A DNA stretch of 64,000 nucleotides from Myxococcota bacterium (GCA_036338695.1 JAYZBQ010000048.1:64001-128000); one strand, 5' to 3'; counted from the first letter of the stretch, positions 38,975-51,541 are shown. Notes: generated by a model from the letters alone, not told the origin. Translations and numbers: made by a program.

Positions 38975-41422
38975 TTGTTTCGCCTGATCGGGTTGGGTCT
39001 ACGCGCGCTGCTTGCGCTGGTGCCGGCGCTTAGCGTCGCCATCGGCGTTTTTGCGCTCGGGCTCTACCAGACCTACCGGGACGGGCTACCTGTCGTCGAT
39101 GACGCCAGCCAGTACGACCCCCCAGCGATCACGCGCTTTGTCGCAGCGGACGGCTCCATCATCGGCGAATTCGCCGAGCAGCGCCGCATCGTCGTCCCCT
39201 ATCGCCGGATCCCCAGACAGCTCATCCAAGCCTTCCTCGCGGCCGAAGACACCGCCTTCTTCGAGCACGACGGCATCGACCCCAAGGGCGTCGTGCGTGC
39301 GGCGCTCATCAACCTGCGGGCAGGTCGCGTCCGCCAGGGCGCCTCGACGATCACCCAGCAGCTCGCCAAGCAGATGCTGGTCCGAAAGATCGGCTACGCC
39401 AAAGGCACGGAGCGCGGCCTCGGTCGCAAGATTCGGGAAGCTATTTTGGCGCGCCGGCTCGAATATACGCTGAGCAAAGAGGACATCCTCTACCTCTATC
39501 TCAACGAGATCTACCTAGGCGCAGGGGTCTACGGTGTCCAAGCTGCAGCTGAGAGTTACTTTGCAAAAAATGTCGAGGACCTGACGCTCGGAGAGATGAG
39601 TCTGCTCGCTGGCTTACCCCCAGCGCCGTCACGCTATTCGCCGATCAAAAACCCAAAGGCAGCGCGCACCAAACAGGCCTACGTCCTGCGCCGTATGGTG
39701 GAAGAGGGCTATATCTCGGTCGACGAGATGAAAGCCGCCAAGGCCGAACGAGCCGAACAGAACGTCCAGAGCAAAGAGAACCTCTTTGCGGACGTGGCGC
39801 CCTACTTCACCGAGCACGTCCGGCGCGACCTCGTCGAAGAATTCGGCGAGGAGGTCGTGCTCAAAAAGGGCGGGTGGCTGATCGAGACGACCATCGACGT
39901 CTCGAGGCAGCGGGCTGCTCGGGGCGCTCTAAAGGGAGGGCTCGATCGGCTGGATCGGCGCATGGGGTACTGGGGGCCGATCGACCGCGTGGCGCCGGGG
40001 CAGATCAGCGCCGCAGCGAAAGCCTACCAAGAGCTCAAGCTTGGCTCAGACTCGCCCAAGGTCAACGGCGAGTACATCGCCGTGGTCGAGAGCGTCTCGA
40101 GGCGCTTTGCGACGGTCCTCATCGGCTCGAAGCGCTACCCTGTCTTGCTCAAAGAGCACCGGTGGATGCGCACCGCCCGCCGGAATGCGCTGAGTAAATC
40201 CGACTACCCAGCCGATATGAGCAAAGTGCTGAACCCCGGTGACATGCTGCGCGTGGTAGTGCGTGAAGAGAAGGGGAAAACGGTCGCTCGGATCATCCAG
40301 GACCCCATGGTCGAGGGCGCGCTCGTGAGCCAAGACATCGAGACGGACTATGTGGTCGCCATGGTCGGCGGCTACGACTTTGACCGGAGCCAGTTTAATC
40401 GCGCCTTTCAGGCCTGCCGACAGCCCGGCTCGTCCTTCAAGCCGATCATCTTCTCAGCTGGGCTTGAGCACGGCGGAAAAATTCGCCGCAACGCGCCGCA
40501 TGAGGTGATCACCCCCTCGACGCTGCTGAGCGATACCCCCATCGTCCGCCACGACTGGGACACGGGCGTACGCTGGAAGCCCAACAATTACGACTCGAGC
40601 TACAGCATGGACGTCCCGCTTCGAACGGCCTTGATGCGCTCGATGAACCTACCGACCATCGATCTCTTCGAGCGTGTGGGCGCGCAGAAGGTGGTCGAAT
40701 GGGCAGGGACGCTCGGGATCAAACAAAAGCTGCACGTCGACGCATCGATCGCGCTGGGGAGTCACTGCGTGATCCCGTGGGAACTGATCCAGGTCTACAG
40801 CCTGTTCGCGCGTCAAGGTCGCACGCCTCGGTCACGCTTCATCACGCGCATCACCGATGCAGACGGGACGGTCCTGCGCGATCAAGCCGACTACCGCGAC
40901 GTCTGGGCGAGCCGCGCCGACCGCGTGGACCGGCTGGTACGCGAGGTGGACGGTCTAACCGAACCCACCATCTCGCCTGCGCTGTCCTACGTCATGACCT
41001 ATCTTCTGCAGCAGGTGGTCGAGCGGGGAACCGCCACGCGTGCGCGGATCGACGGGGTCCCGGTGGCCGGGAAGACCGGGACCACAAACGACAGCTACGA
41101 CGCCTGGTTTGTGGGCTACACCCCCCGCTTGGTCAGCGGCGTTTGGGTGGGCTTTGACCACAACGAGCGACCGCTCGGTCGATCCGAGACAGGGGGGCGA
41201 ACCGCTGCGCCGATCTGGCGTGACTACACCAAGCGCGCCATCGCCGATCTTGAGCGTGCGCGGTTTAGGGTTCCTGCCGGCGTCGAGTTCGCCGACATCG
41301 ACCCCAAAACAGGGGATGTAGGCAAAGGAGTGCGCGTCCCGTTTATCCAAGGGACCGTCCCCAAGGCGCGCCAGCGTGCACCGCAGCAGAGCGAATCGGT
41401 CGGTCTTAGCGACGAGCTTTAG
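38975..41422 (+). CDS. mrcA: Penicillin-binding protein 1A
   Basis: Transglycosylase AAED..FF.H.G and GASTITQQ; transpeptidase SSFK, SMN and KTG. Confidence 0.93.
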   Translation: MFRLIGLGLRALLALVPALSVAIGVFALGLYQTYRDGLPVVDDASQYDPPAITRFVAADGSIIGEFAEQRRIVVPYRRIPRQLIQAFLAAEDTAFFEHDGIDPKGVVRAALINLRAGRVRQGASTITQQLAKQMLVRKIGYAKGTERGLGRKIREAILARRLEYTLSKEDILYLYLNEIYLGAGVYGVQAAAESYFAKNVEDLTLGEMSLLAGLPPAPSRYSPIKNPKAARTKQAYVLRRMVEEGYISVDEMKAAKAERAEQNVQSKENLFADVAPYFTEHVRRDLVEEFGEEVVLKKGGWLIETTIDVSRQRAARGALKGGLDRLDRRMGYWGPIDRVAPGQISAAAKAYQELKLGSDSPKVNGEYIAVVESVSRRFATVLIGSKRYPVLLKEHRWMRTARRNALSKSDYPADMSKVLNPGDMLRVVVREEKGKTVARIIQDPMVEGALVSQDIETDYVVAMVGGYDFDRSQFNRAFQACRQPGSSFKPIIFSAGLEHGGKIRRNAPHEVITPSTLLSDTPIVRHDWDTGVRWKPNNYDSSYSMDVPLRTALMRSMNLPTIDLFERVGAQKVVEWAGTLGIKQKLHVDASIALGSHCVIPWELIQVYSLFARQGRTPRSRFITRITDADGTVLRDQADYRDVWASRADRVDRLVREVDGLTEPTISPALSYVMTYLLQQVVERGTATRARIDGVPVAGKTGTTNDSYDAWFVGYTPRLVSGVWVGFDHNERPLGRSETGGRTAAPIWRDYTKRAIADLERARFRVPAGVEFADIDPKTGDVGKGVRVPFIQGTVPKARQRAPQQSESVGLSDEL

Positions 41423-42386
41423 CGTCGGCGTTGCGCGCCCAGGCGTCGACGAGGTGCTTACAACCTGGTCGGGCGAAACGCCTCGTCCACACGTTGCGCA
41501 GAGGCCACAAACGGAGCTGGAGTTCGTAGCCGACATCGACAAAGCCAGCGGCTCGGTTTTTCGTGCGCGACGCAGTGTTGTGCGCTTGCAACGCCGCAAC
41601 CAGCGTCATCTCGGACGCTCGGAAATCGATTACCCAATCAGCGAGCGCGCGAGACAACCCCTGACGCCGATGCGACGGGACCACGTAGCTGTCGTGCAGG
41701 TTGGCGTAGCCAGGTTCCCACTGGCTGGTCCAGGCGCAGGCGACGGCGCGCACCTCATCATAAACGATCACGCCATACGTCGTCTCATCAGTATACCGGG
41801 GCAGCGGTAAGCCGGTGACGGCGAGCTCCTCTCGCCACGGCTCAAAGAACCCATGCTGCACTCGATACGAAGGCGCCCACTCCACGAGACGAGGCTCAGC
41901 CGGTGTCGAGATGATGATCCGTACAGAAGGAGCAAACGGTCTGAGCAAGGTGCGATAGGTGAGATAAACAGCGTTTCCTACCAGGGACCAACTCTTCGCG
42001 TCGTCGATCCGCCGACGCCATCGTCTGCGCCATGCGCCGAGCGTCTTTGGCTGAAACCACCGGTTGTAGAGCGCGCTGCGCCACCCACGCTCCACCCGCA
42101 CCACGACGCCAGCGACCTGATCCGGCTCAAGCCATGGGTCCATGTGCTCCAGGCCGTCACCGCGTGTTCGAAGTCGGCCCTCGTCTTTTTGGAGGAGTCG
42201 ATGCACCGTCAGCGAGGGCTTACCGACGTCAAACGCGAGCAGGTCACCCACTTGATATTCGTCACGAGGCGCAATCACGACGCGATCACCCTCGATCAAC
42301 GTCGGCCACATCGAGCGGCCTTGAACGCGCAAAGTGGCTCGCTCGCCGCGCCCGAGCAGATCGAGCGTCAGATCAGCGGGCCGCAT
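41406..42386 (-). CDS. S24/S26-family peptidase fused to a GNAT-like acyltransferase domain
   Basis: GRSMWPTL..GD, VHRL and TRGD in the N-terminal part. C-terminal V.PSHRRQGL and N.AS....AGF GNAT motifs. Start placed at ATG 42386. Confidence 0.8.
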   Translation of the reverse strand: MRPADLTLDLLGRGERATLRVQGRSMWPTLIEGDRVVIAPRDEYQVGDLLAFDVGKPSLTVHRLLQKDEGRLRTRGDGLEHMDPWLEPDQVAGVVVRVERGWRSALYNRWFQPKTLGAWRRRWRRRIDDAKSWSLVGNAVYLTYRTLLRPFAPSVRIIISTPAEPRLVEWAPSYRVQHGFFEPWREELAVTGLPLPRYTDETTYGVIVYDEVRAVACAWTSQWEPGYANLHDSYVVPSHRRQGLSRALADWVIDFRASEMTLVAALQAHNTASRTKNRAAGFVDVGYELQLRLWPLRNVWTRRFARPGCKHLVDAWARNADAKARR

Positions 42387-43149
42387 CAAGCACTCGCTGA
42401 ATGGCATCCACTGGAGAGTGATCAAGCGACCAACCGACACGCAAGACCGGAGTCTGGCGTAGCGCATCATACGCCCAGTCGAGGTCGTCAAAAAGATCAT
42501 CGCCGCGCAGCCGAATGAGCGCATTCGCCAGCGCAACGTGGGCGTCGTACCCGTCGACCCGCTCGATCGATGTGACCTGTTCATGAGCTGGCAGCAACAA
42601 CGCGGCGACCGGGACGCGATCCCAAAATGTCGGCAACCGCTCGCCCGGAACTAAGCACGCCTGAGCGTGGAGCGAGCGGTCAGCGGATGACAGCGCAAGG
42701 GCCTCATCGCCGAGCTCATCCCCGCCGAGCGCAGCGGTCAGTGTTGACTTCCCCGCGCCCGACAGTCCGATCGCAACCAGCGCGCCGTAGCCGGGTAGAT
42801 AGCGCCCCGCAGCGTGCGCCAGACGATCTCCACGCCGACGCAAAAAATGGGCGGATAAGCCCATGATACCATGTAAAATGGTGCGCGGTGCGCCGTGCCG
42901 AAGCGGCTGTCCGGGGAGCTCGGGATAGACCAAGGTGCCCTGATCAGTCACCGGGCCGAGCGCCAGCGTCTTGCCGCCACGGTGAGAGGACGCGCCGGGC
43001 CCAGCGACCAAGCGCGCATGCCACCAGTCTTGGTCTGTTCGGACTGGAAACCCCTCACAGAACGCTTGCGCAAGCGCTTGAGTCGTGTGGGCGTATCCCT
43101 CGAGCTCTAGGTCTAGATTAGCTGGACCCACACAGAAGGAACACGCCAC
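42373..43149 (-). CDS. HPr-kinase-like P-loop protein
   Basis: HAA, GLSGAGKST and GDE motif order typical of HPrK-like kinases found in RiPP clusters. Confidence 0.72.
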   Translation of the reverse strand: MACSFCVGPANLDLELEGYAHTTQALAQAFCEGFPVRTDQDWWHARLVAGPGASSHRGGKTLALGPVTDQGTLVYPELPGQPLRHGAPRTILHGIMGLSAHFLRRRGDRLAHAAGRYLPGYGALVAIGLSGAGKSTLTAALGGDELGDEALALSSADRSLHAQACLVPGERLPTFWDRVPVAALLLPAHEQVTSIERVDGYDAHVALANALIRLRGDDLFDDLDWAYDALRQTPVLRVGWSLDHSPVDAIQRVLDAAR

Positions 43150-43161
43150 AGCGTTGACCCT

Positions 43162-43281
43162 CTAGAAGCCGCTCGCCAAAGCGTCTTGAACCAAAGGCTT
43201 CTCGTCCCGCACACGCGGCGGGTGATAGGCCTTTCGCTCTTCGTTACGCTTCGATTGGCTGTTCTTGTTCTTCTCGTTCAT
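43162..43281 (-). CDS. Putative RiPP precursor peptide, 39 aa: MNEKNKNSQSKRNEERKAYHPPRVRDEKPLVQDALASGF
   Basis: Translated by hand; below the ORF-track cutoff. ATG 43281 has an AAGGGGG RBS and the TAG is at 43162-43164. It fills the intergenic gap and carries a YxxPxV RRE-binding motif. Confidence 0.8.
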   Translation of the reverse strand: MNEKNKNSQSKRNEERKAYHPPRVRDEKPLVQDALASGF

Positions 43282-43291
43282 CGCTACCCCC

Positions 43292-46200
43292 TTAGTAACG
43301 CAGCCGCCAGGAACCACCGGACACGGTGCGTACAATCGCTAGATCCACGGCGCTGTCGCCGTTGGCGTCTGCACAGACACCAAGGCCCCAGCCCGACCCG
43401 ATATCGTATTCACGGTCCGAGCTCAGGTTGAAGTCGGCGCCGTTTTGGTGACCAAAGTAGACAAAGGCCCGTGTCTCTGCACCCAAGATCAAATCCTCGT
43501 AACCGTCACCGTTAAGATCGCATGAGCTCTGCTGGTTCGCATATTTAAAGCGCGGCGTCGTACCGGGAATCGGTAGGGTGACCGTCGCTTGAGCGTTGAG
43601 CGCATTGGCGCCCTCATAGATATACCACCAGTACGTCCCCTGGGTGGTGCCGTGGTTGACGATGAGGTCTTTCTTAGAGGTTCCCACGACGTTGCCGACG
43701 GTAATTCTAAAGCCCATCTGTCCAGTCGTCTGCTGCGCTCCAGCGATCGTCACGACATTCGGTGACGACGTCGTGTACGCCCCGCTCAGCCCGCCACCTT
43801 CGTTGCCGGTGATAACAAAGACACCGCCCGCTCGCGAGTTCAAGAAGGGCGCACCCAGCGCGACGTCTCCTGCGTTGTCGCCGACAAAGTCGTGGCCCGA
43901 GATGACCACGAGCCCTGCCCGTGACCCTGCGACCCCTACGAAGGTGGCGTCTGCGTCAGCCTGCACCACCGTGCCGCCAGCGGCGATGTCATCACCGTCA
44001 AAGAAGTAGGTGGTACCCGTCGACCCATTCAAGAGCGGCGCGGTCACCGCTAAGTCGACGGTCGCGTCGCCGAGCACCGAACCTTGCGCCGAGACCGAGT
44101 AACCGAAATAGCCCGTCCCTGTGCCTTGGATGGTCGTCGTAGGCGTCGCCGAGACCCCTTGTGCGCTGCCGTTGAAGACATACGCCTTACCACCGTCGGT
44201 GTTGCTGACTGTCGAAACGATCAACTCATCAAACCCGTCCTCGTTGAAGTCGGCGGTCGTACAGAAGTTCCCAAAGCGTCCCCCGGAGACCGTTCCTGGG
44301 AGAATCACAGGCGTGAGGTTCGCCGCGTTAGCAGCACCATAGTAGATGAACACGGCGCCCACGCTGACGCCATTGTTGACGTAATCTCGGTCGGTCACGA
44401 CCACGTCGTCGCGGCTGTCACCGTTAAAGTCGCCCTGGCAGATGTCCCAACCCCATTTGGCGCTCGTACCTGCGGGCTGGAACTCAGCCTGCGTGAGCTC
44501 GGTGTCCACCGAGATGATCGAGCTGTTCTCGATCGCGCCGAGGTTCCCGACATCATCGACGGCACGCGCCGCAATCGAGACGCTCGGGTCATCAAACGCA
44601 ACCCCTGCGATATCCACCTGAAAAGCGGCGCCCGCGGCCTGAGGCACCATCGCCTCGCTCGCCTGGGTTGCGCTGTTGAAGTTCCCTTCGGTGATCGCGT
44701 TGCCGCTGTGACGCACTTGGTAACCGGTCACCGTCCCGGTGTCCACGTCGTCGCCCGGTTCATTCCAGGTCAGGCGCACGGTGCCGGTGCGCTTGTCCTG
44801 TACGACGCCGTTGATCGTCATCGCGTCGGGTGCGACGACGTCGACGGTGGCGCTCAGGGACGTCTGCGCGGTGTTCCCCGCCGCATCCGTCGCCGTGAAC
44901 GTGATGGCGTGAATCAACCCACTGTTCAGGGTTGCGCCGGTGATCGTCACCGGTCCATCGGCGTTCACCGCGACCGTGCCGATCGTTGCGGTTTGATCGC
45001 TCACACCGCCAAGCGTTCCGCCGATGGCGCCGGTGACGGTGAAGGTGAACGAGGTGTTCAGCGGCGCCCCGCCTTGTTGGTCGTCAGCCAGCGTGTAGGT
45101 CGCCGGGCTAGCAGCGGGCGTCGTCATCTCGATCGTCGGCGCAGTGATGTCGACCACCACCGTCAGATCGGCGTTGGTCGTGTTGCCATCTTGCGTCACT
45201 GCGGCGCGCAAGCTGTGCGACCCTTCCGTCAGGGTGATCGGTCCGATGGTCACCGCACCGTTCGCGACGATACCGGTCCCTAACGGGTTACCATTTTCGC
45301 TCAAGGTGACGGTCTGTCCAGCCGCGTCTGAGCTCAGCGCAAACGTGTACTGGAGACCGTTGGCGCCGTTGTCTAGGTCATCGCTGGCGTTGAGGTTCGC
45401 TGGGTTCGAGTCAGGCGTCGTAAAGAGCAAGGTGGGCGCCACCAAGCTGAGTGAGATCGGGACCCCAGCGCTTGTCGACTCGTTACCGCTCGTGTCCGAG
45501 ACGACGGCGGTCAGGGTCTGATCGCCCTCGAGCAAGGTGCAGCGAATGACGAGGTCCTGTCCGGTCGTCTGCGACGTACAGCGCTCGCCCCCGACGGTGC
45601 TGCGAACGCTGACGGTCTGACCGTTCTCAACCTGGCTTGCGCTCACGGTCACGTCCGTCTGAAACCCAGCCGCCTGATCGTCGGCGTCGTTATCATCGCC
45701 AAAGCTCGCGTTCGCTGCAGGGCTCGTGACAGCGACGACCGGCGCGATCGAATCCACGGTCACCACCACCGCCTCACTCGTCGTGGCGTTCCCGGCTTCA
45801 TCGGTGGCGACCGCGGTCAACGTGACGGCGCCCTCGGGCAAGGTCACCGCGGCGCTCGCAGCGCCGTTGGCGACGTTCGCCGTGGCGAGCTCGGCGTCAC
45901 CATTTCGGATGCTCACGCTGGTGCCGTCTTCGGCGTCGGTGCTCACCGTGATGGTGGTTTGCAGTCCGTCAGTCTGAGGGTCGGTGTCGGCGCTGGCGAG
46001 CAGCGTGGCGCCGTTCGCAGGCGACGTGATCGCCGAGGTCGGTGCGGTCACATCCACACGGACCACCATACCCGCTCCAGGATCGTTGATGTTCCCTGCA
46101 GCGTCTGCGACGCGCAAGGTGACGGTGTGATCTCCGTCGCCCAAGCTGCCGGCGACCGTGGCCGTCCCGTCGACGATACCGCCCGTGCCTGCCGGCGTGT

Positions 46201-49200
46201 TCGGCGCAGGGTTGTTCGTCAGCATGGTCACCGTGGCGTTCTCAGCCTGCCCGGCAACGGTGGCAGCGCAACTACCCTGCCAACCTGCGGTGTTCGGGTC
46301 CGCGTCTTCAGCCTTGTTGAACACGAGGAATCCAGCTTGTTGCGCGCCGTCATCGCCCGCCCAAGTGCAGTCACTGATGGTCGGGCGTGTCAGGTCGACC
46401 GTGATCGAGACCGTATCCGTCGCCGAGTTGATCCCGTCGTCCACGCGCGCCGTCAGGGTCTGAGTCCCCTCAACCACCGTCACGTTCGGAATCTCAATGG
46501 TCGCCGCAGCGAGCTGGCCCGAGCCGATCACCTGGTCATTGCTGTCGAGCACTTGGACCGTCGTGCCCAGCTGGACACCTTGAACACCCATCCGCAGAAC
46601 GATCTGAAAGCCAGCGAGTTGACCGTTGGTGTCTTCGTTGATGCCAAAGAGGGCATCTGCGCCCGGACTAAAGATATCGATGGTCGGCGCCGTACCGTCG
46701 ACCTCGACGTTGACCACATCGCTCGTCTCAGTGTTGCCAACGGCGTCTGTTGCGCGGGCGCTGATCTGCCGCTGACCATCAGCGAGCGTCACACCGACAA
46801 AGGTTGCGCTCAACGCGGCGCCGGTCGTCCCGGCCACTTGATCATCGACAAGGAGCGCGATCTGTGAGCCCTCGGCGGCGCCCGTCGTCGCGACGTCGAC
46901 GTCGTACTGAAGCCCCTCAACAAAATTATTGGCGTCATCTTCGGCGCCGAGCTGCGCGTTGTTCTGCGGATCCGTGACCGACACCGTCGGACCGACTCGG
47001 TCAACGACGACCGCCACGTTGGCGCCTCCTGCGTTTCCAGCGAGATCCGTCGCGGCGACGGTCAAGGTGACCTCACTGTTCGGGTCGTTCACCTCGTCCG
47101 CCAGCGCCACAGCGCTGAACGTAAAAGAGCAGTTATCACCCGGCGCAAAACTCGTTCGCACGATGCCATCCGCGCTCACACCGCCGCCCGCAACGGACAA
47201 CGTCGCTGTGGGGTTGGCGCCCTCAACCGTACACGCTCCATCAGCCGCAGCTGAGACCACGATGTTCCGACGATAACGGTTCCCTTGGGTCGAGTCCGGC
47301 GCGTCCGACGCCGTGTACACGTTCGCGCCGTTGACTTGCGGTATACCAGTAAAGGTGAGCACAGGAGCCGTCTGGTCGACCGTGACCGTCGAAGCCGCCG
47401 AGACCACCGGATCGCGCCCTTGGAACGGACACGTCGCCACCAACGACCAGGCGCCCTCAGCGCCTAGGTTCAAGGTCCCAAAATCAATCGTCCCGTTCGC
47501 CGCAGCGCTTGCGTTTGCGGTCACGTCTTGCTGACCTTGCAAGCTCGCCACCACCGAACACGATGCGCCCTCAGCGGCGTTACTCGAGGCGGTCACATCG
47601 ACCGGGTTGGCGTTGGTCCGTGCGCCGTCGTTGGGTGTCAAAATGCGCACGAAAGGCTGCCCGGTCGTCACCGTCACGATGGCGTCCGCCGTCGCCGTGT
47701 TACCGGCTCGGTCGATCACGGTCGCCGACACCCGGTTCTCACCCTCAAGCAAGGTAAAGCCAACGTCGTTGTTGGTGAAATTGGCGACCGTTGCGCCGTT
47801 TGCGTCGACGGTTGCGCCATTGATCACCGCGCCGTTGAGGCGCATCGTCACCGCTTGACCGACCGGCTCGTTGGTCACGACCACTCGGAAACCATACTGA
47901 AACCCGTTGCTGACGTCAGCGCCCCAATCGAGGTTGAGATTCTGCGTTGCGTTGAGGGTGCCGTCTGCCACCACATCACGCACGCTGCCGCCCGCGCTGC
48001 CATCCAGACCGAGGAGCGCCACGCCCGGCGCCGTGGCGTCCAAGGTCACGCTGACGCTCGCCTGAGGCGCAGGATTCCCTGCGCGATCCGACACATCCGC
48101 TGTGATCGTGTAGACACCGTCTTGGGCGCCCCAGGAGACGTTCTCGACCAGCGCGCGACCGTTTTCATCCACCGTCGGCGCAGGATCGATCGCAGCGCCA
48201 CCGTTAACGGAGATCGTGACCGGCTGACCGACCTCTGCATCCGTGATCGCCAGCTCAATGCTGGAGCTCCCGGACGCCACAACGGCGCCATCCACGGGCG
48301 ACGCAAAGGTGATCGTCGGCGCAGTGCCATCGACGTTCAGGTTGAGCGCCTCAGAGGGAAGGGCGCGGTTACCGTCACCGCCACGCGTCACCGCTCCGGC
48401 TCGGATACCCCACAAGCCGTCGGGCAAGGTCAACCGCACACCGCCGACGCCTGTGTCGTTATCACTCGCCGCAGGTTCAGCCAGCGCGCTGGCGACCCAC
48501 GGACCGGTGGCGTTGCCTTGATCATCGAGCGTCTGCAGCTCGCAGTACACCCTTGGGTCCAGCGAGGAGATCGTGGAAAAGTTGGCGATCGACACCGCGC
48601 AGTCGAGCTGAAACCCTTCAAGCTGCGGGTCGGCGTCTGCAGCGGCGAGTACGGCGCCGGACTGAGCTGGCTGCACCAGGGTCACGACGGGCACCGTGAT
48701 GTCCACCTCGACCTCACGGGTGGCGGTCGCAGGGTTCCCTGCGGCGTCCGAGGTCGAGACGGTAAGCGTCTGATTTCCGGCGGGCAGCCGAACGTCAAGG
48801 CTGGCGACGCCAAGCTCACTCGGAGCGGCCGAGACCGCGCCCGCCTCATCGTCCCCGACACGCGCCGTGACCAACGACACATCCGCATAGTTCGTCAGGC
48901 GCACTTGCAGGCGATAGGTGAGCTCGTCGAGCGGGTTCCCATCTTGGTCGTCTGACGCGGTCAGCACCGTGCGGCTGTCCGCCGAGAGCCCGACAACCTC
49001 TATGCCAGGGGCGAGGGTGTCGACCAGATGAACCTGTCGCAGCGAGGAGCCCTGGTTGCGCGAACCCGATTGGTCCGTCACGACTGCGGTAAAGCTCTGC
49101 AGGTCTTGGTTGTTGGCGCTCTGGGCGAGGACGATCCGGAGCGTGGCGCTGCCGTCGTCGCCGATCGCGCCCGTGACCGGCTCGGCGCCGACCGGGATCG

Positions 49201-50095
49201 TTACGGTCGAGCCTGCACCGCAACGAGTCGAGCTGACGACCACGTCCACGTCGGCGACCTCAGGCGTGCTCGGGTCGGCGTCATTCGCTGCGAGCACCGG
49301 CGTTCCGTTGACCGGAGCGGTCACCGCCACGTCACAGCGCCCGGTGTCCACCTCAAGCTCGAGCGTCGCCGTACCAGCCTGGTCTTGATCGAGCAGAACG
49401 TAGGTGGTCAGGCGTGCGGCACCCTCTGGAAGGCTGACGTTGTTGAACGTGGCGCTGCCGCCTTGCAACGTCTCCGAGAGCGCGCTGGCTGCGCCGTCCA
49501 CGTTGAGCCCGACGGTCAAGCCATCGACTACGCCATCGCCCGCACAGCTCACGCCGATATGGGTCTGAAATCCAGCGTTGATGACGTCGAGGTCATCGCT
49601 AAGCGTAGCGCCCGCCACCAGCTCGGGACCTCCCGTAGCCTGCGTGAAGCGGCACTTTGGACCACCCGGCGCCACGACAGAAAAGTTGGCCGTCGTGACC
49701 ACATCCGCGCCGAAGTTATGCGTCAACGTCGCCTCGAGCTCGTTGGTTCCGCTGACGAGCGTGACTCCCTCGATGGTCCCGCTCCTGCTGGTGCTGTCGC
49801 CTCCTAGGCTGACCTCTTGCGCCGACCCGTCGACGTCACTTTTGTTCACCAAACGAACCGTGACCGAGTCATCGCTGGCGTTGAGCCCGACGGCGCGCAA
49901 CCGGACAGCGATCTGGACGCCCGGCGTGCTCGGGTCCACATCATCAGCAGCCTGAATACGAGCGCCTGGATTCGGAGAGACAAACGCTAAGCCGACGATG
50001 TTGGTCGGCGCCTCTTCACAGGCGCAACCGCCAAAACTCATTGTACTGAGCAAGGCAGCGCCCGCTAGCAATCGAACAGGAGCAAGCCGAAGCAT
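43292..50095 (-). CDS. Giant (2267 aa) surface lipoprotein: tandem Ig-like repeats, an FN3-like domain and a C-terminal FG-GAP beta-propeller
   Basis: AGGAGG RBS and lipobox FGGC. Repeated D.TAP...I.SP, D.AGN and DxD...G.Q motifs, then LTW.EPGDD, and GDFNGD/DFNEDG/DLNGDG FG-GAP repeats. Confidence 0.9.
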   Translation of the reverse strand: MLRLAPVRLLAGAALLSTMSFGGCACEEAPTNIVGLAFVSPNPGARIQAADDVDPSTPGVQIAVRLRAVGLNASDDSVTVRLVNKSDVDGSAQEVSLGGDSTSRSGTIEGVTLVSGTNELEATLTHNFGADVVTTANFSVVAPGGPKCRFTQATGGPELVAGATLSDDLDVINAGFQTHIGVSCAGDGVVDGLTVGLNVDGAASALSETLQGGSATFNNVSLPEGAARLTTYVLLDQDQAGTATLELEVDTGRCDVAVTAPVNGTPVLAANDADPSTPEVADVDVVVSSTRCGAGSTVTIPVGAEPVTGAIGDDGSATLRIVLAQSANNQDLQSFTAVVTDQSGSRNQGSSLRQVHLVDTLAPGIEVVGLSADSRTVLTASDDQDGNPLDELTYRLQVRLTNYADVSLVTARVGDDEAGAVSAAPSELGVASLDVRLPAGNQTLTVSTSDAAGNPATATREVEVDITVPVVTLVQPAQSGAVLAAADADPQLEGFQLDCAVSIANFSTISSLDPRVYCELQTLDDQGNATGPWVASALAEPAASDNDTGVGGVRLTLPDGLWGIRAGAVTRGGDGNRALPSEALNLNVDGTAPTITFASPVDGAVVASGSSSIELAITDAEVGQPVTISVNGGAAIDPAPTVDENGRALVENVSWGAQDGVYTITADVSDRAGNPAPQASVSVTLDATAPGVALLGLDGSAGGSVRDVVADGTLNATQNLNLDWGADVSNGFQYGFRVVVTNEPVGQAVTMRLNGAVINGATVDANGATVANFTNNDVGFTLLEGENRVSATVIDRAGNTATADAIVTVTTGQPFVRILTPNDGARTNANPVDVTASSNAAEGASCSVVASLQGQQDVTANASAAANGTIDFGTLNLGAEGAWSLVATCPFQGRDPVVSAASTVTVDQTAPVLTFTGIPQVNGANVYTASDAPDSTQGNRYRRNIVVSAAADGACTVEGANPTATLSVAGGGVSADGIVRTSFAPGDNCSFTFSAVALADEVNDPNSEVTLTVAATDLAGNAGGANVAVVVDRVGPTVSVTDPQNNAQLGAEDDANNFVEGLQYDVDVATTGAAEGSQIALLVDDQVAGTTGAALSATFVGVTLADGQRQISARATDAVGNTETSDVVNVEVDGTAPTIDIFSPGADALFGINEDTNGQLAGFQIVLRMGVQGVQLGTTVQVLDSNDQVIGSGQLAAATIEIPNVTVVEGTQTLTARVDDGINSATDTVSITVDLTRPTISDCTWAGDDGAQQAGFLVFNKAEDADPNTAGWQGSCAATVAGQAENATVTMLTNNPAPNTPAGTGGIVDGTATVAGSLGDGDHTVTLRVADAAGNINDPGAGMVVRVDVTAPTSAITSPANGATLLASADTDPQTDGLQTTITVSTDAEDGTSVSIRNGDAELATANVANGAASAAVTLPEGAVTLTAVATDEAGNATTSEAVVVTVDSIAPVVAVTSPAANASFGDDNDADDQAAGFQTDVTVSASQVENGQTVSVRSTVGGERCTSQTTGQDLVIRCTLLEGDQTLTAVVSDTSGNESTSAGVPISLSLVAPTLLFTTPDSNPANLNASDDLDNGANGLQYTFALSSDAAGQTVTLSENGNPLGTGIVANGAVTIGPITLTEGSHSLRAAVTQDGNTTNADLTVVVDITAPTIEMTTPAASPATYTLADDQQGGAPLNTSFTFTVTGAIGGTLGGVSDQTATIGTVAVNADGPVTITGATLNSGLIHAITFTATDAAGNTAQTSLSATVDVVAPDAMTINGVVQDKRTGTVRLTWNEPGDDVDTGTVTGYQVRHSGNAITEGNFNSATQASEAMVPQAAGAAFQVDIAGVAFDDPSVSIAARAVDDVGNLGAIENSSIISVDTELTQAEFQPAGTSAKWGWDICQGDFNGDSRDDVVVTDRDYVNNGVSVGAVFIYYGAANAANLTPVILPGTVSGGRFGNFCTTADFNEDGFDELIVSTVSNTDGGKAYVFNGSAQGVSATPTTTIQGTGTGYFGYSVSAQGSVLGDATVDLAVTAPLLNGSTGTTYFFDGDDIAAGGTVVQADADATFVGVAGSRAGLVVISGHDFVGDNAGDVALGAPFLNSRAGGVFVITGNEGGGLSGAYTTSSPNVVTIAGAQQTTGQMGFRITVGNVVGTSKKDLIVNHGTTQGTYWWYIYEGANALNAQATVTLPIPGTTPRFKYANQQSSCDLNGDGYEDLILGAETRAFVYFGHQNGADFNLSSDREYDIGSGWGLGVCADANGDSAVDLAIVRTVSGGSWRLRY

Positions 50096-50106
50096 GCAGA
50101 CCTCCT

Positions 50107-50394
50107 TTATTCCGCCCATGTGATCAGACCTCGCCGGTGCAAATCATCTACAAACACCTTCAAGTCCTTCAAAGCGGTCTCTTCTGAAACGTTGAACTCT
50201 TCCGTGATCGCCGCTGCGACCCCCCGAAGTGTAGCGCAGCCGTCGAATCGCTGAAATGCAAAACTGCCGACCTCACTCAATCTCCGTATGCAAGCGTCGG
50301 AACTCGTCACCACCAGGACCTCTCCATCATACGCCCGCCAGCTGACCCGGCTTGGGATGACCGGGACGCGCTGGTCGCTTTGCGATGGGTCCAT
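50107..50394 (-). CDS. PqqD-family protein (RiPP recognition element)
   Basis: DGEVLVV..L.EVG..F..FDG..T...I.EEF.V...A..DL..FV..L...GLI matches the PqqD/RRE pattern. Confidence 0.88.
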   Translation of the reverse strand: MDPSQSDQRVPVIPSRVSWRAYDGEVLVVTSSDACIRRLSEVGSFAFQRFDGCATLRGVAAAITEEFNVSEETALKDLKVFVDDLHRRGLITWAE

Positions 50395-50421
50395 GGCTCA
50401 GCCCCTTGCTACGCAAGGCGA

Positions 50422-50450
50422 ACGTTGCCGCAGCGACTCGCCGGTGTCAA
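50422..50450 (-). promoter_or_regulatory. Candidate sigma-70 promoter for the PqqD operon
   Basis: Minus strand TTGACA-N17-CAACGT, followed by an AAGGGG RBS before ATG 50394. Confidence 0.45.
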
Positions 50451-50452
50451 AA

Positions 50453-51541
50453 TCACAATGAGGACCCGAGCGCCGAACGAACCGCGCGCTCGACGCCCTG
50501 CAGATCGGGCGTCCCGGACCACAATCGAACCACGCGCCCCTGGGGGCCGATCAGCGCCAAGGTCGGATACACAGTGATCCCGACGGCGTCCGCCCACGCG
50601 CCGCGGTCCACCAAAACCCGAAGCTCGGGCGCCCTATCCGATTGGTATTTCTTTATATTTTTTAGCAGCTCAGGGTGCGGTTGACCGCGCCCCTCAACGT
50701 TGACCAGCAGCAACTCAAAGCGCGGATCTTGGACCGACCGCTTGAGCTGGCTCAGACCGGGCAGCAAGCGCTTACAAGCGCCGCACCAAGTCGTCCAAAA
50801 CTCCACTAAGGTTACCCGGCCACGCAGGCCTGCCGGATGCCAGTCTCCGCCCCCAATTTCAGGCGTTACGACCAAGCGGTCGATGAGCTGGTCACCCGCT
50901 ACCGCAGGGGTCCAACTGGCGTACGCGCGCCAGGCAGCAGGCGCCGAGACGATCAGCGCGATCGCAAGGCTGATGCGCACAGCCAGCAGCAAACGTCGCG
51001 TCCCGCCGCCAAAGCGGCGACTAACCAACCAGCCAAGCAACCCGCTCAGGACGACAAAGGCGACCGCAACCGTCCACTGCTCCGGGCGCCAGCGACCCAA
51101 CTCGGTCACCCCGCGGTACGCAGGCAAGTACCCCAACACCCCCTCGGCAAAATCAAAATAACTCCGAGTTGAGGGCAAATGAGACAAAACGAAGACAATA
51201 CGAATCCAAATGAGCGCAAAAGCATAACCCAACCAAACCGAGGAACCCGCTGCAGCCAGGCGGTCCATGCGGGTCCCATCTGAGCGCTCATTGAGCTGCG
51301 TGAGACGCTGAAGCAAGGCACCCAACACCAGCAACGCAACCCAATCGGTAACCACCGGGTAGGCTAATCGGCTGACCATGCCATGGACCGGCGCAAACCA
51401 GTCGCGCCGAAACAAGGCGGCTAGGTAGCCTAAGGAGGTGGCTTGCATCAGGATATTGACCGCGAGCAGATCACCGAAGCCTAACGGTAGCGGGGCGGCG
51501 CCTTTTGGCTTATCCAACACACCCAAGATGGATCGACTCAT
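50453..51541 (-). CDS. Membrane protein with C-terminal TlpA-like thioredoxin domain (start uncertain)
   Basis: Several hydrophobic segments followed by [11 protein letters not shown] and YPT. Confidence 0.8.

Follow-up and report, generated by a model that had tools for sequence, protein, structure and literature searches.

A five-gene Myxococcota operon pairing a candidate LPP-like phosphopeptide pathway with a giant propeller-tipped lipoprotein

Introduction

The closest described relative of the locus considered here is the Linear Polyphosphorylated Peptide (LPP) system (LppA/K/B/S/D/N) of Paenibacillus alginolyticus (Bacillota), in which a RiPP (ribosomally synthesised and post-translationally modified peptide) recognition element (RRE), an HprK kinase and an SpI-like peptidase were shown biochemically to give a linear peptide phosphorylated at Ser+3 (Popov et al. 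2026, PMC13381572). The leader is cut 16 residues after its Tyr, LppS removes it, efficient LppS cleavage requires L-10 and F-3, and according to the paper neither LPPs nor phosphorylated lasso peptides have a known function (PMC13381572). We analysed a 64,000-nucleotide stretch of DNA from a Myxococcota bacterium (GCA_036338695.1, JAYZBQ010000048.1:64001-128000; hereafter the window) which carries on its minus strand, read at 41406-50450, a five-gene operon encoding an RRE, a giant lipoprotein, a YxxP peptide, a kinase and an S26 peptidase-GNAT fusion.

Like LPP clusters, this operon has an RRE that is a discrete protein, a kinase of HprK-like type and an SpI/SipW-like Ser-His-Asp leader peptidase with no cyclase, and its peptide has a YxxPxV leader and a Ser at +3. 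It differs in the giant lipoprotein within the operon, the GNAT fusion and the Myxococcota host, and it lacks the linked NTP transferase and MsbA-like exporter of LPP clusters. The LPP core has 45 residues against 5 predicted here, and L-10, F-3 and T-1 are not retained. The main text of the LPP paper makes no mention of Myxococcota, acetyltransferases or radical S-adenosylmethionine (rSAM) enzymes, and in the portion of its data available the four peptidase rows from Myxococcota have no assigned precursor and do not belong to the LPP cluster (PMC13381572).

Results

The features of the operon, in gene order, were as follows.

50107..50394, minus strand: RRE (PqqD family, LppB-like), 95 aa; PF05402, E 5e-12
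43292..50095, minus strand: giant lipoprotein, 2,267 aa; Pfam Big_13, E 4e-29, and FG-GAP, E 6e-11
43292..44521, minus strand: FG-GAP beta-propeller tip, the final 409 aa of the giant lipoprotein; structure model and Foldseek
43162..43281, minus strand: precursor peptide, 39 aa; YHPPRV motif and register against LPP
42373..43149, minus strand: PEPCK/HPrK-fold kinase-like protein, 258 aa; structure model and fold search
41406..42386, minus strand: S24/S26 (SipW/LppS-like) peptidase-GNAT fusion, 326 aa; PF00717, E 2e-7, and PF00583, E 4e-7

A sequence-only reading of the window had described five co-directional, tightly spaced genes, and this was borne out, with intergenic distances (5' to 3' in the operon) of 11, 10 and 12 bp followed by a 14-bp overlap. 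The last gene, encoding the S26-GNAT fusion, converges head-on with a PBP1A gene. Pfam searches matched PqqD, Big_13, FG-GAP, Peptidase_S24 and GNAT. In the genome, a PqqD/RRE, a kinase of this kind and a peptide of this kind were each found once.

We compared the genome of the window (G000, 93.6% complete) with five relatives from its family (G001-G005), of which G001-G003 belong with it to one genus and G004 and G005 to a sister genus, and with 81 kinase-centred regions outside the family, which are a non-random sample because they were picked by rank from phylum searches. Three named records were excluded from the counts as duplicates of stretches already included. The RRE, giant protein, peptide, kinase and S26 genes were found in the same order and the same chromosomal place in all five relatives, more than chance would give. 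The G003 locus additionally has an rSAM/SPASM gene. Outside the family an FG-GAP giant protein was present in 46 of the 81 regions, 43 of which also held an RRE (the other 3 end at a contig edge) and 43 an S26 gene, while rSAM genes were found in 5 of the 46 and were absent from 41. The giant-bearing operon spans 13 families, the home family included. Relatives of one of these kinases at 74-77% identity include Hyalangium records, one of them the cultured Hyalangium versicolor H56D21, a match that identifies the phylum as Myxococcota. Kinase matches counted at family level (197/401 at E 1e-6 and 184/401 at E 1e-32) cover mixed cassette types and are not counts of the operon. Taking the 46 regions together with the six family genomes (52 loci), a YxxP-type peptide lay directly 3' of the giant gene in 51 (50 by script, 1 by eye), the remaining locus being unclear. 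The giant protein is present in 6/6 family genomes, and homologous loci retain it together with the peptide.

The 39-aa peptide has a basic N-terminus, the RRE motif Y19-x-x-P22-x-V24, D33 and Ser37, and its register matches that of LPP: Y-16, P-13, V-11, an acid at -2 (D33) and Ser+3 (Ser37). Set against the LPP leader consensus YxxPxVLxHQxIxFETxxS, the peptide has the Y, the P and the V, a hydrophobic residue at -5, an acidic one at -2 and Ser+3, and it lacks L-10, H, Q, F-3 and T-1. All six family peptides have S/T at core +3, and 42 of 48 distinct peptides have it at +3 or +4, versus 11% S/T further along the core. The core is just 4-6 residues long in 5 of 7 family loci, and a metagenome relative (L139) has a 4-residue core, LASF, with Ser+3 retained. 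Between Tyr and stop, 8 synonymous and 2 non-synonymous changes separate the peptide gene from that of G001, a ratio from which we take the peptide to be evolving under purifying selection. Among Cys-bearing cores the Cys count is even in 36 of 41 and odd in 5, which suggests disulfides and, through them, export; the G000 core is Cys-free. A search of PDB sequences with the 39-aa peptide gave no match, and no NCBIfam model matched any of the five peptides tried. A read-through fusion of the peptide with the giant protein was ruled out, as the frame offset differs among loci.

By the LPP register, the leader would probably be cut after Ala34, giving the core LASGF. Signal peptidases follow an A-x-A rule, and a cut after Ala36 on this rule, giving pSer-Gly-Phe, is an unlikely alternative that we still keep in mind. 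In a metagenome cassette (L146/L147) the leader has its FET motif two positions earlier than that of LPP, which is relevant to the prediction of the cut site.

The assignment of the kinase as HPrK-like was weak in hidden Markov models (HMMs; TIGR04355, E 0.012), and its profile against PDB sequences gave generic P-loop matches only. The label is upheld because the fold search settled what these matches had left unsettled: the model (predicted local distance difference test, pLDDT, 89.9) matched PEPCK at Z 13.6 (236 aligned residues, root-mean-square deviation 4.2) and HPr kinases at Z 10.0-10.3. The P-loop is intact, with His112, Walker A at 128-136 and Asp148, and residues H112, S130, G131, G133, K134 and D148 are invariant in 42/42 sequences.

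The Ser-His peptidase-GNAT fusion was likewise confirmed. The S26 domain matches TIGR02228 (E 6e-6), has no transmembrane helix by hydropathy and retains the catalytic residues Ser25, His62 and Asp83, which correspond to LppS S29, H68 and D93 in a motif-by-motif comparison by eye; its His is kept in 46/46 loci and its Ser in 41/46. The acetyl-CoA motif of the GNAT domain, RRQGLS, lies at 240-245 of the fusion. Two S26 genes occur at a single locus in L061 (10268-12046), where the second is also GNAT-fused, and in L104 (2323-3087 and 8825-9805). In G002, a gene 3' of S26 (L011:3062-3772) is a further variable tailoring candidate with no Pfam match, carrying what we take to be a His-rich cupin-like motif.

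The sole significant PDB sequence match of the RRE was LppB (9x8z, E 1.2e-5). Its D77 and F81, equivalent to LppB D70 and F74, are invariant in 26/26 aligned RREs, and the position of LppB N33 is N or S in 26/26, being Ser in G000-G003 and Asn in G004, G005 and others. G005 has a second RRE in a different context (L022, G005:C18).

For the giant lipoprotein, the ATG with the better ribosome-binding site gives 2,267 aa and the ATG at 50119 gives 2,275 aa. The protein comprises a signal peptide, a lipobox with Cys24, an Ig-like stalk of ~1,850 aa which carries nine Asp-rich ...G[FLV]Q loops (motif count), and a C-terminal propeller; a lipobox was found in 36 of 41 giant open reading frames (ORFs) of at least 900 aa. 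The model of the last 409 residues (pLDDT 90.4) is an integrin-alpha-like FG-GAP beta-propeller, for which the top Foldseek matches were integrin alpha heads (E 2e-13, TM 0.69-0.75) and the ESM Atlas returned FG-GAP clusters only. The word adhesin, used of this protein in the sequence-only reading, is a label for its architecture. Almost every giant protein finishes with a short hydrophobic strand whose last residue is Tyr, His, Arg or Phe (window 43292-43320, minus strand), and this strand may serve propeller closure or alternatively be a sorting signal.

In three lineages, the tip, peptide and kinase are 27-43% identical as a block, and the stalk start and RRE 65-91%. In the window the variable block begins with the propeller tip (43292-44521), where identity to relatives falls. 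Within the genus of G000, the PBP1A and transaldolase flanks are 89-93% identical and the stalk 63-78%; among G000, G002 and G003, the tip (38-40%), kinase (27-33%) and S26 domain (30-36%) are no closer to each other than to the sister genus. For G000 and G003 identity falls from 91% in the flanking genes, 74% in the stalk and 65% in the RRE to 38% in the tip, 28% in the kinase and 36% in S26. G000 and G001 have the same core and tip ends that are 92% identical, and G004 and G005 have a near-identical core with tips at 98%, kinases at 97% and stalks at 86%. A pair from another family (L054 and L069) has stalks at 64-87%, last 500 residues at 31-39%, kinases at 36% and S26 at 74%. The third case, L101 and L102 versus L103, has a longer variable block, L101 and L103 diverging from ~residue 500. 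Over the 37 loci that could be used (15 of the 52 were left out for partial or unparsed domains), kinase identity had a partial correlation of r 0.74 with the tip and 0.27 with the stalk. At the level of sequence, the tip, peptide and kinase resemble one exchangeable allele in a pherotype-like pattern.

The sequence-only reading had noted that no cyclase, B2 protease or rSAM enzyme is encoded at the locus. This was found to be correct, and the genome search found no B2 protease and no SPASM protein anywhere in G000. Radical SAM matches number 14 in the rest of this genome, which also encodes 2 full-length asparagine synthetases. The sole NTP_transf_5 gene (L136, G000:C21:23220-24146) is unlinked, on another contig among unrelated neighbours, and might conceivably act in trans like LppN.

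The cassette layout recurs with unrelated large exported partners in one slot. In 8 of the 81 regions there is a sister cassette of S26, RRE, a ~1,030-aa secreted protein, peptide and kinase, in which the ~1,030-aa protein has a C-terminal BamB/PQQ-type propeller (3/3 scanned) and the peptide has Ser+3 (5/5 read). These cassettes (L116-L123, e.g. L120:4968-10335) come from two large-genome genera with many complete genomes, and are probably the most tractable form. Their gene order is S26, RRE, a small lipoprotein-like ORF, the ~1,030-aa protein, peptide and kinase, and the peptide has A-x-A followed by Ser+3 and two Cys. In five further cases, rSAM-bearing RRE/kinase/S26 cassettes adjoin secreted proteins of 1,000-1,430 aa with a terminal C25 peptidase domain; loci of this rSAM/C25 (gingipain-like) kind are L073, L081, L083, L115, L132 and L133, and the C25 protein is possibly a transpeptidase or a target which the peptide inhibits. 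The metagenome cassette L146/L147 has the order S26-kinase-RRE-peptide-rSAM between two propeller proteins.

Upstream of the RRE gene we noted two sequence elements.

50445..50450, minus strand: TTGACA, a -35-like hexamer
50404..50418, minus strand: short inverted repeat, CCTTGC-N3-GCAAGG, covering the ribosome-binding region of the RRE gene

The hexamer had been proposed as part of a promoter. It is present, and TTTGACA is kept 5' of the RRE in 6/6 family genomes, overlapping the Leu and stop codons of the upstream gene in 5/6. Its partner -10 hexamer is poor, and a promoter scan did not call it (the scan's one site lay elsewhere, with 1.4 expected), so a sigma-70 promoter at this position was set aside. 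The inverted repeat was found in 4/4 same-genus genomes and is absent from both sister-genus genomes. Directly 5' of the operon (window 50453-51541, minus strand) is a gene for a membrane protein with a C-terminal TlpA-like thioredoxin domain (WCGAC), co-directional with the operon in 6/6 family genomes and split into two ORFs in G003; it could be co-transcribed with the operon and act on the 20 Cys that the giant protein contains.

Contigs from two RNA libraries (two studies) cover parts of 44,858-50,402, the RRE-giant region, and one of 606 bp, ~96% identical, bridges the RRE and the start of the giant gene. Flanking genes are represented by short unrelated scraps only, and 41,085-44,580 (tip end, peptide, kinase and S26) is uncovered in either run, possibly through low depth or another allele. 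The runs, X1 and X2, hold just 0.11 and 0.07 of words. It should be noted that these contigs do not prove transcription or a single transcript, and DNA carry-over is possible.

Discussion

We propose that the RRE would bind the YxxP leader of the 39-residue peptide, that the kinase would phosphorylate Ser37, that the S26 domain would remove the leader after Ala34 and that the N-terminus so exposed may be acetylated by the GNAT domain of the fusion; the resulting tiny phosphopeptide would serve the propeller tip on the co-encoded giant surface lipoprotein as a cognate ligand or as a tag. By analogy with LPP, the chemistry (RRE binding, Ser phosphorylation and RRE-dependent cleavage) is likely. 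A tiny phosphorylated linear product, which the sequence-only reading had suggested, is the best reading. RiPP GNATs can acylate N-termini, and N-acetylation, to which the fusion points, is a tentative step on which we lean slightly to the side of doubt. Export by a non-dedicated route followed by binding to the tip is more doubtful again, although quite conceivable. The chain as a whole, with the pairing of product and propeller tip, is offered as a tentative proposal falling a little short of probable. Gene order and co-exchange lead us to infer that the giant protein may be tagged or regulated by the peptide.

Several observations weigh against this proposal. In the chemistry, LppB Asn33, which fixes the leader Pro, is replaced by Ser in the G000 RRE, LPP L-10 and F-3 are Arg and Gln in the G000 peptide, and 6 of the 48 distinct peptides, many of the 48 being from one family, have no S/T at +3 or +4. 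The GNAT is fused to S26 in 2 of the 6 family genomes and missing from 4 of the 6 family loci, and at least four kinase homologues from one genus (L124-L127) stand alone, with RRE, S26 and peptide all missing within 10 kb. Export is the weakest step, with no linked transporter: an ABC ATPase motif was found in 0/52 locus windows by a pattern which finds 10 ORFs in G000, and so we see no export route for a cytoplasmic phosphopeptide. On the side of recognition, a five-residue core leaves little room for specificity, and the giant protein could not signal like ComP because it has no transmembrane or cytoplasmic part. As to the exchange itself, the swap was seen in just 4 of 53 close-stalk pairs (3 lineages), which are non-independent, tree conflicts differ modestly (kinase-tip 3/3, kinase-stalk 4/8), and co-exchange of neighbouring genes is expected from linkage alone.

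The last point bears on the strongest of the other explanations, in which the LPP-like chemistry is the same and the giant lipoprotein is a co-regulated passenger that shares a lifestyle (attachment, biofilm or predation) with the peptide without contacting it, its tip hitchhiking in a recombination-prone 3' block. We consider this unlikely, if well worth keeping. With kinase and S26 controlled for, the similarity of cores has no relation to that of tips (partial r -0.08), the length of the block varies, as in L101 and L103, unrelated large proteins occupy the slot in sister cassettes, and the LPP clusters of Bacilli function without a giant protein (PMC13381572). A mere passenger would, however, have to account for a giant gene that lies between the RRE and the peptide and not at an edge in 13 families, for the L054/L069 block, which is flanked by conserved stalk and conserved S26, and for a slot repeatedly taken by proteins whose terminal domain is a propeller or a peptidase.

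Less probable is that the enzymes act within the cell, either on the giant protein or on how it is expressed. The RRE-bound peptide would then be an adaptor or switch, kinase, S26 or GNAT would modify the giant protein or chaperone it ahead of export, and the released core would be a by-product. SipW-type peptidases of Bacillus process dedicated surface proteins, the loci have no exporter, the cores of most family loci are very short, and the tip is followed more closely by the kinase (r 0.94) than by the core (r 0.71). Yet the lipoprotein signal of the giant protein is an ordinary one, its sequence showed no leader-like motif, the S/T at +3/+4 and the paired Cys point to the core as the product, and LppS cleaves a peptide leader (PMC13381572).

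That the operon is the decaying remnant of a radical-SAM RiPP cluster, having lost its rSAM gene and Cys core with the rest drifting, is very improbable. The rSAM genes of G003 and of 5 of the 46 other loci, the truncated, Cys-free G000 core and the high divergence of kinase and S26 within the genus would fit decay; it is opposed by the 41 of 46 loci outside the family that are intact without rSAM, the excess of synonymous changes in the peptide, the retention of all catalytic residues and the RNA-library contigs over the 5' part of the operon. That a lasso cyclase or a radical SAM enzyme encoded at another locus finishes the peptide in trans, to give a RiPP of known class, can practically be dismissed: the two asparagine synthetases, 14 radical SAM matches, unlinked NTP_transf_5 gene and incomplete assembly leave room for it, but no B2 or SPASM protein was found, the synthetases start with an N-terminal glutamine amidotransferase and have unrelated neighbours, and LASGF has too few residues to form a lasso ring and lacks Asp, Glu and Cys.

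Returning to the proposed pairing of phosphopeptide and tip, a 4-5 residue phosphorylated core would, if real, be among the smallest RiPP products, and recognition by the tip would mean modified-peptide recognition on a bacterial integrin-like head. A speculative extension, which we regard as unlikely, is a RiPP-based surface identity of myxobacteria, with a lineage-specific phosphopeptide key, a matching propeller lock on a stalk, and lock, key and kinase exchanged as an allele. On this same speculative reading, RRE/kinase/S26 cassettes would more broadly be a general means of supplying large exported propeller and C25-peptidase proteins with small partners made from modified peptides, be they ligands, plugs or subunits. 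Because this variant has dropped the exporter and nucleotidyltransferase and has a single candidate partner mid-operon, it offers a direct test of phosphopeptide function; the operon is common in Myxococcota and present in a cultured strain, H. versicolor H56D21, and its natural alleles are ready cognate and non-cognate controls.

Among known systems, paeninodin-type phosphorylated lasso peptides share a discrete RRE, a [YW]xxP leader and an HprK-like Ser kinase (PMC13381572); they differ from the present operon, which has no macrolactam cyclase at the locus, no B2 in the genome and a core too short for a ring, without the ring-forming Asp or Glu at 7-9. The maturase and Cys core of rSAM/SPASM RiPPs (sacti- and ranthipeptides, GeoRSP, SynChlorMet) do not occur in G000. 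RRE-kinase cassettes in NCBIfam/TIGRFAM (SynChlorMet, GeoRSP, HprK-related kinase A/B) are alike in combining a PqqD-like protein with an HprK-related kinase, often with rSAM; the operon scores far below the cut-off of these models (RRE 25 vs 100 bits, kinase 15 vs 200), and their names were not found in the literature searched. In the qhp operon (quinohemoprotein amine dehydrogenase), a peptide with a leader is modified and, after a serine protease has trimmed it, works with larger exported proteins of the same operon, and this operon may by analogy be a precedent for how the G000 operon works; it differs in having an rSAM enzyme, a flavoprotein and a dedicated ABC exporter and in that the peptide is a catalytic subunit, with no homology shown (PMC7876137). 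The ComQXP pherotype locus of Bacillus subtilis is similar in that modifying enzyme, peptide and candidate recognition domain lie side by side and show much higher polymorphism than the flanks; there is no homology, and the candidate receptor here is a lipoprotein tip without a signalling domain (PMC4408185). Among pherotype loci, the agr locus of staphylococci is comparable to ComQXP.

From our comparison with the LPP set, the sequences of which were compared by reading, the operon would work like the LPP pathway, and we do not file it as an LPP cluster because no exporter or NTP transferase is linked to it and L-10, F-3, T-1 and N33 are not kept. The sequence-only reading had called it an undescribed RRE-dependent pathway, which stands for the cyclase-less, conserved Myxococcota variant and not for the core, shown in Bacillota in 2026 (PMC13381572). 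We found no published account linking a giant protein to such peptides in a search that most subscription journals lay outside. It is the Myxococcota variant, with its giant lipoprotein, GNAT fusion and missing exporter, that is undescribed, and what is new here is the giant lipoprotein in mid-operon across the phylum, the apparent tip/peptide/kinase allele block and the recurrence of the layout with other partners.

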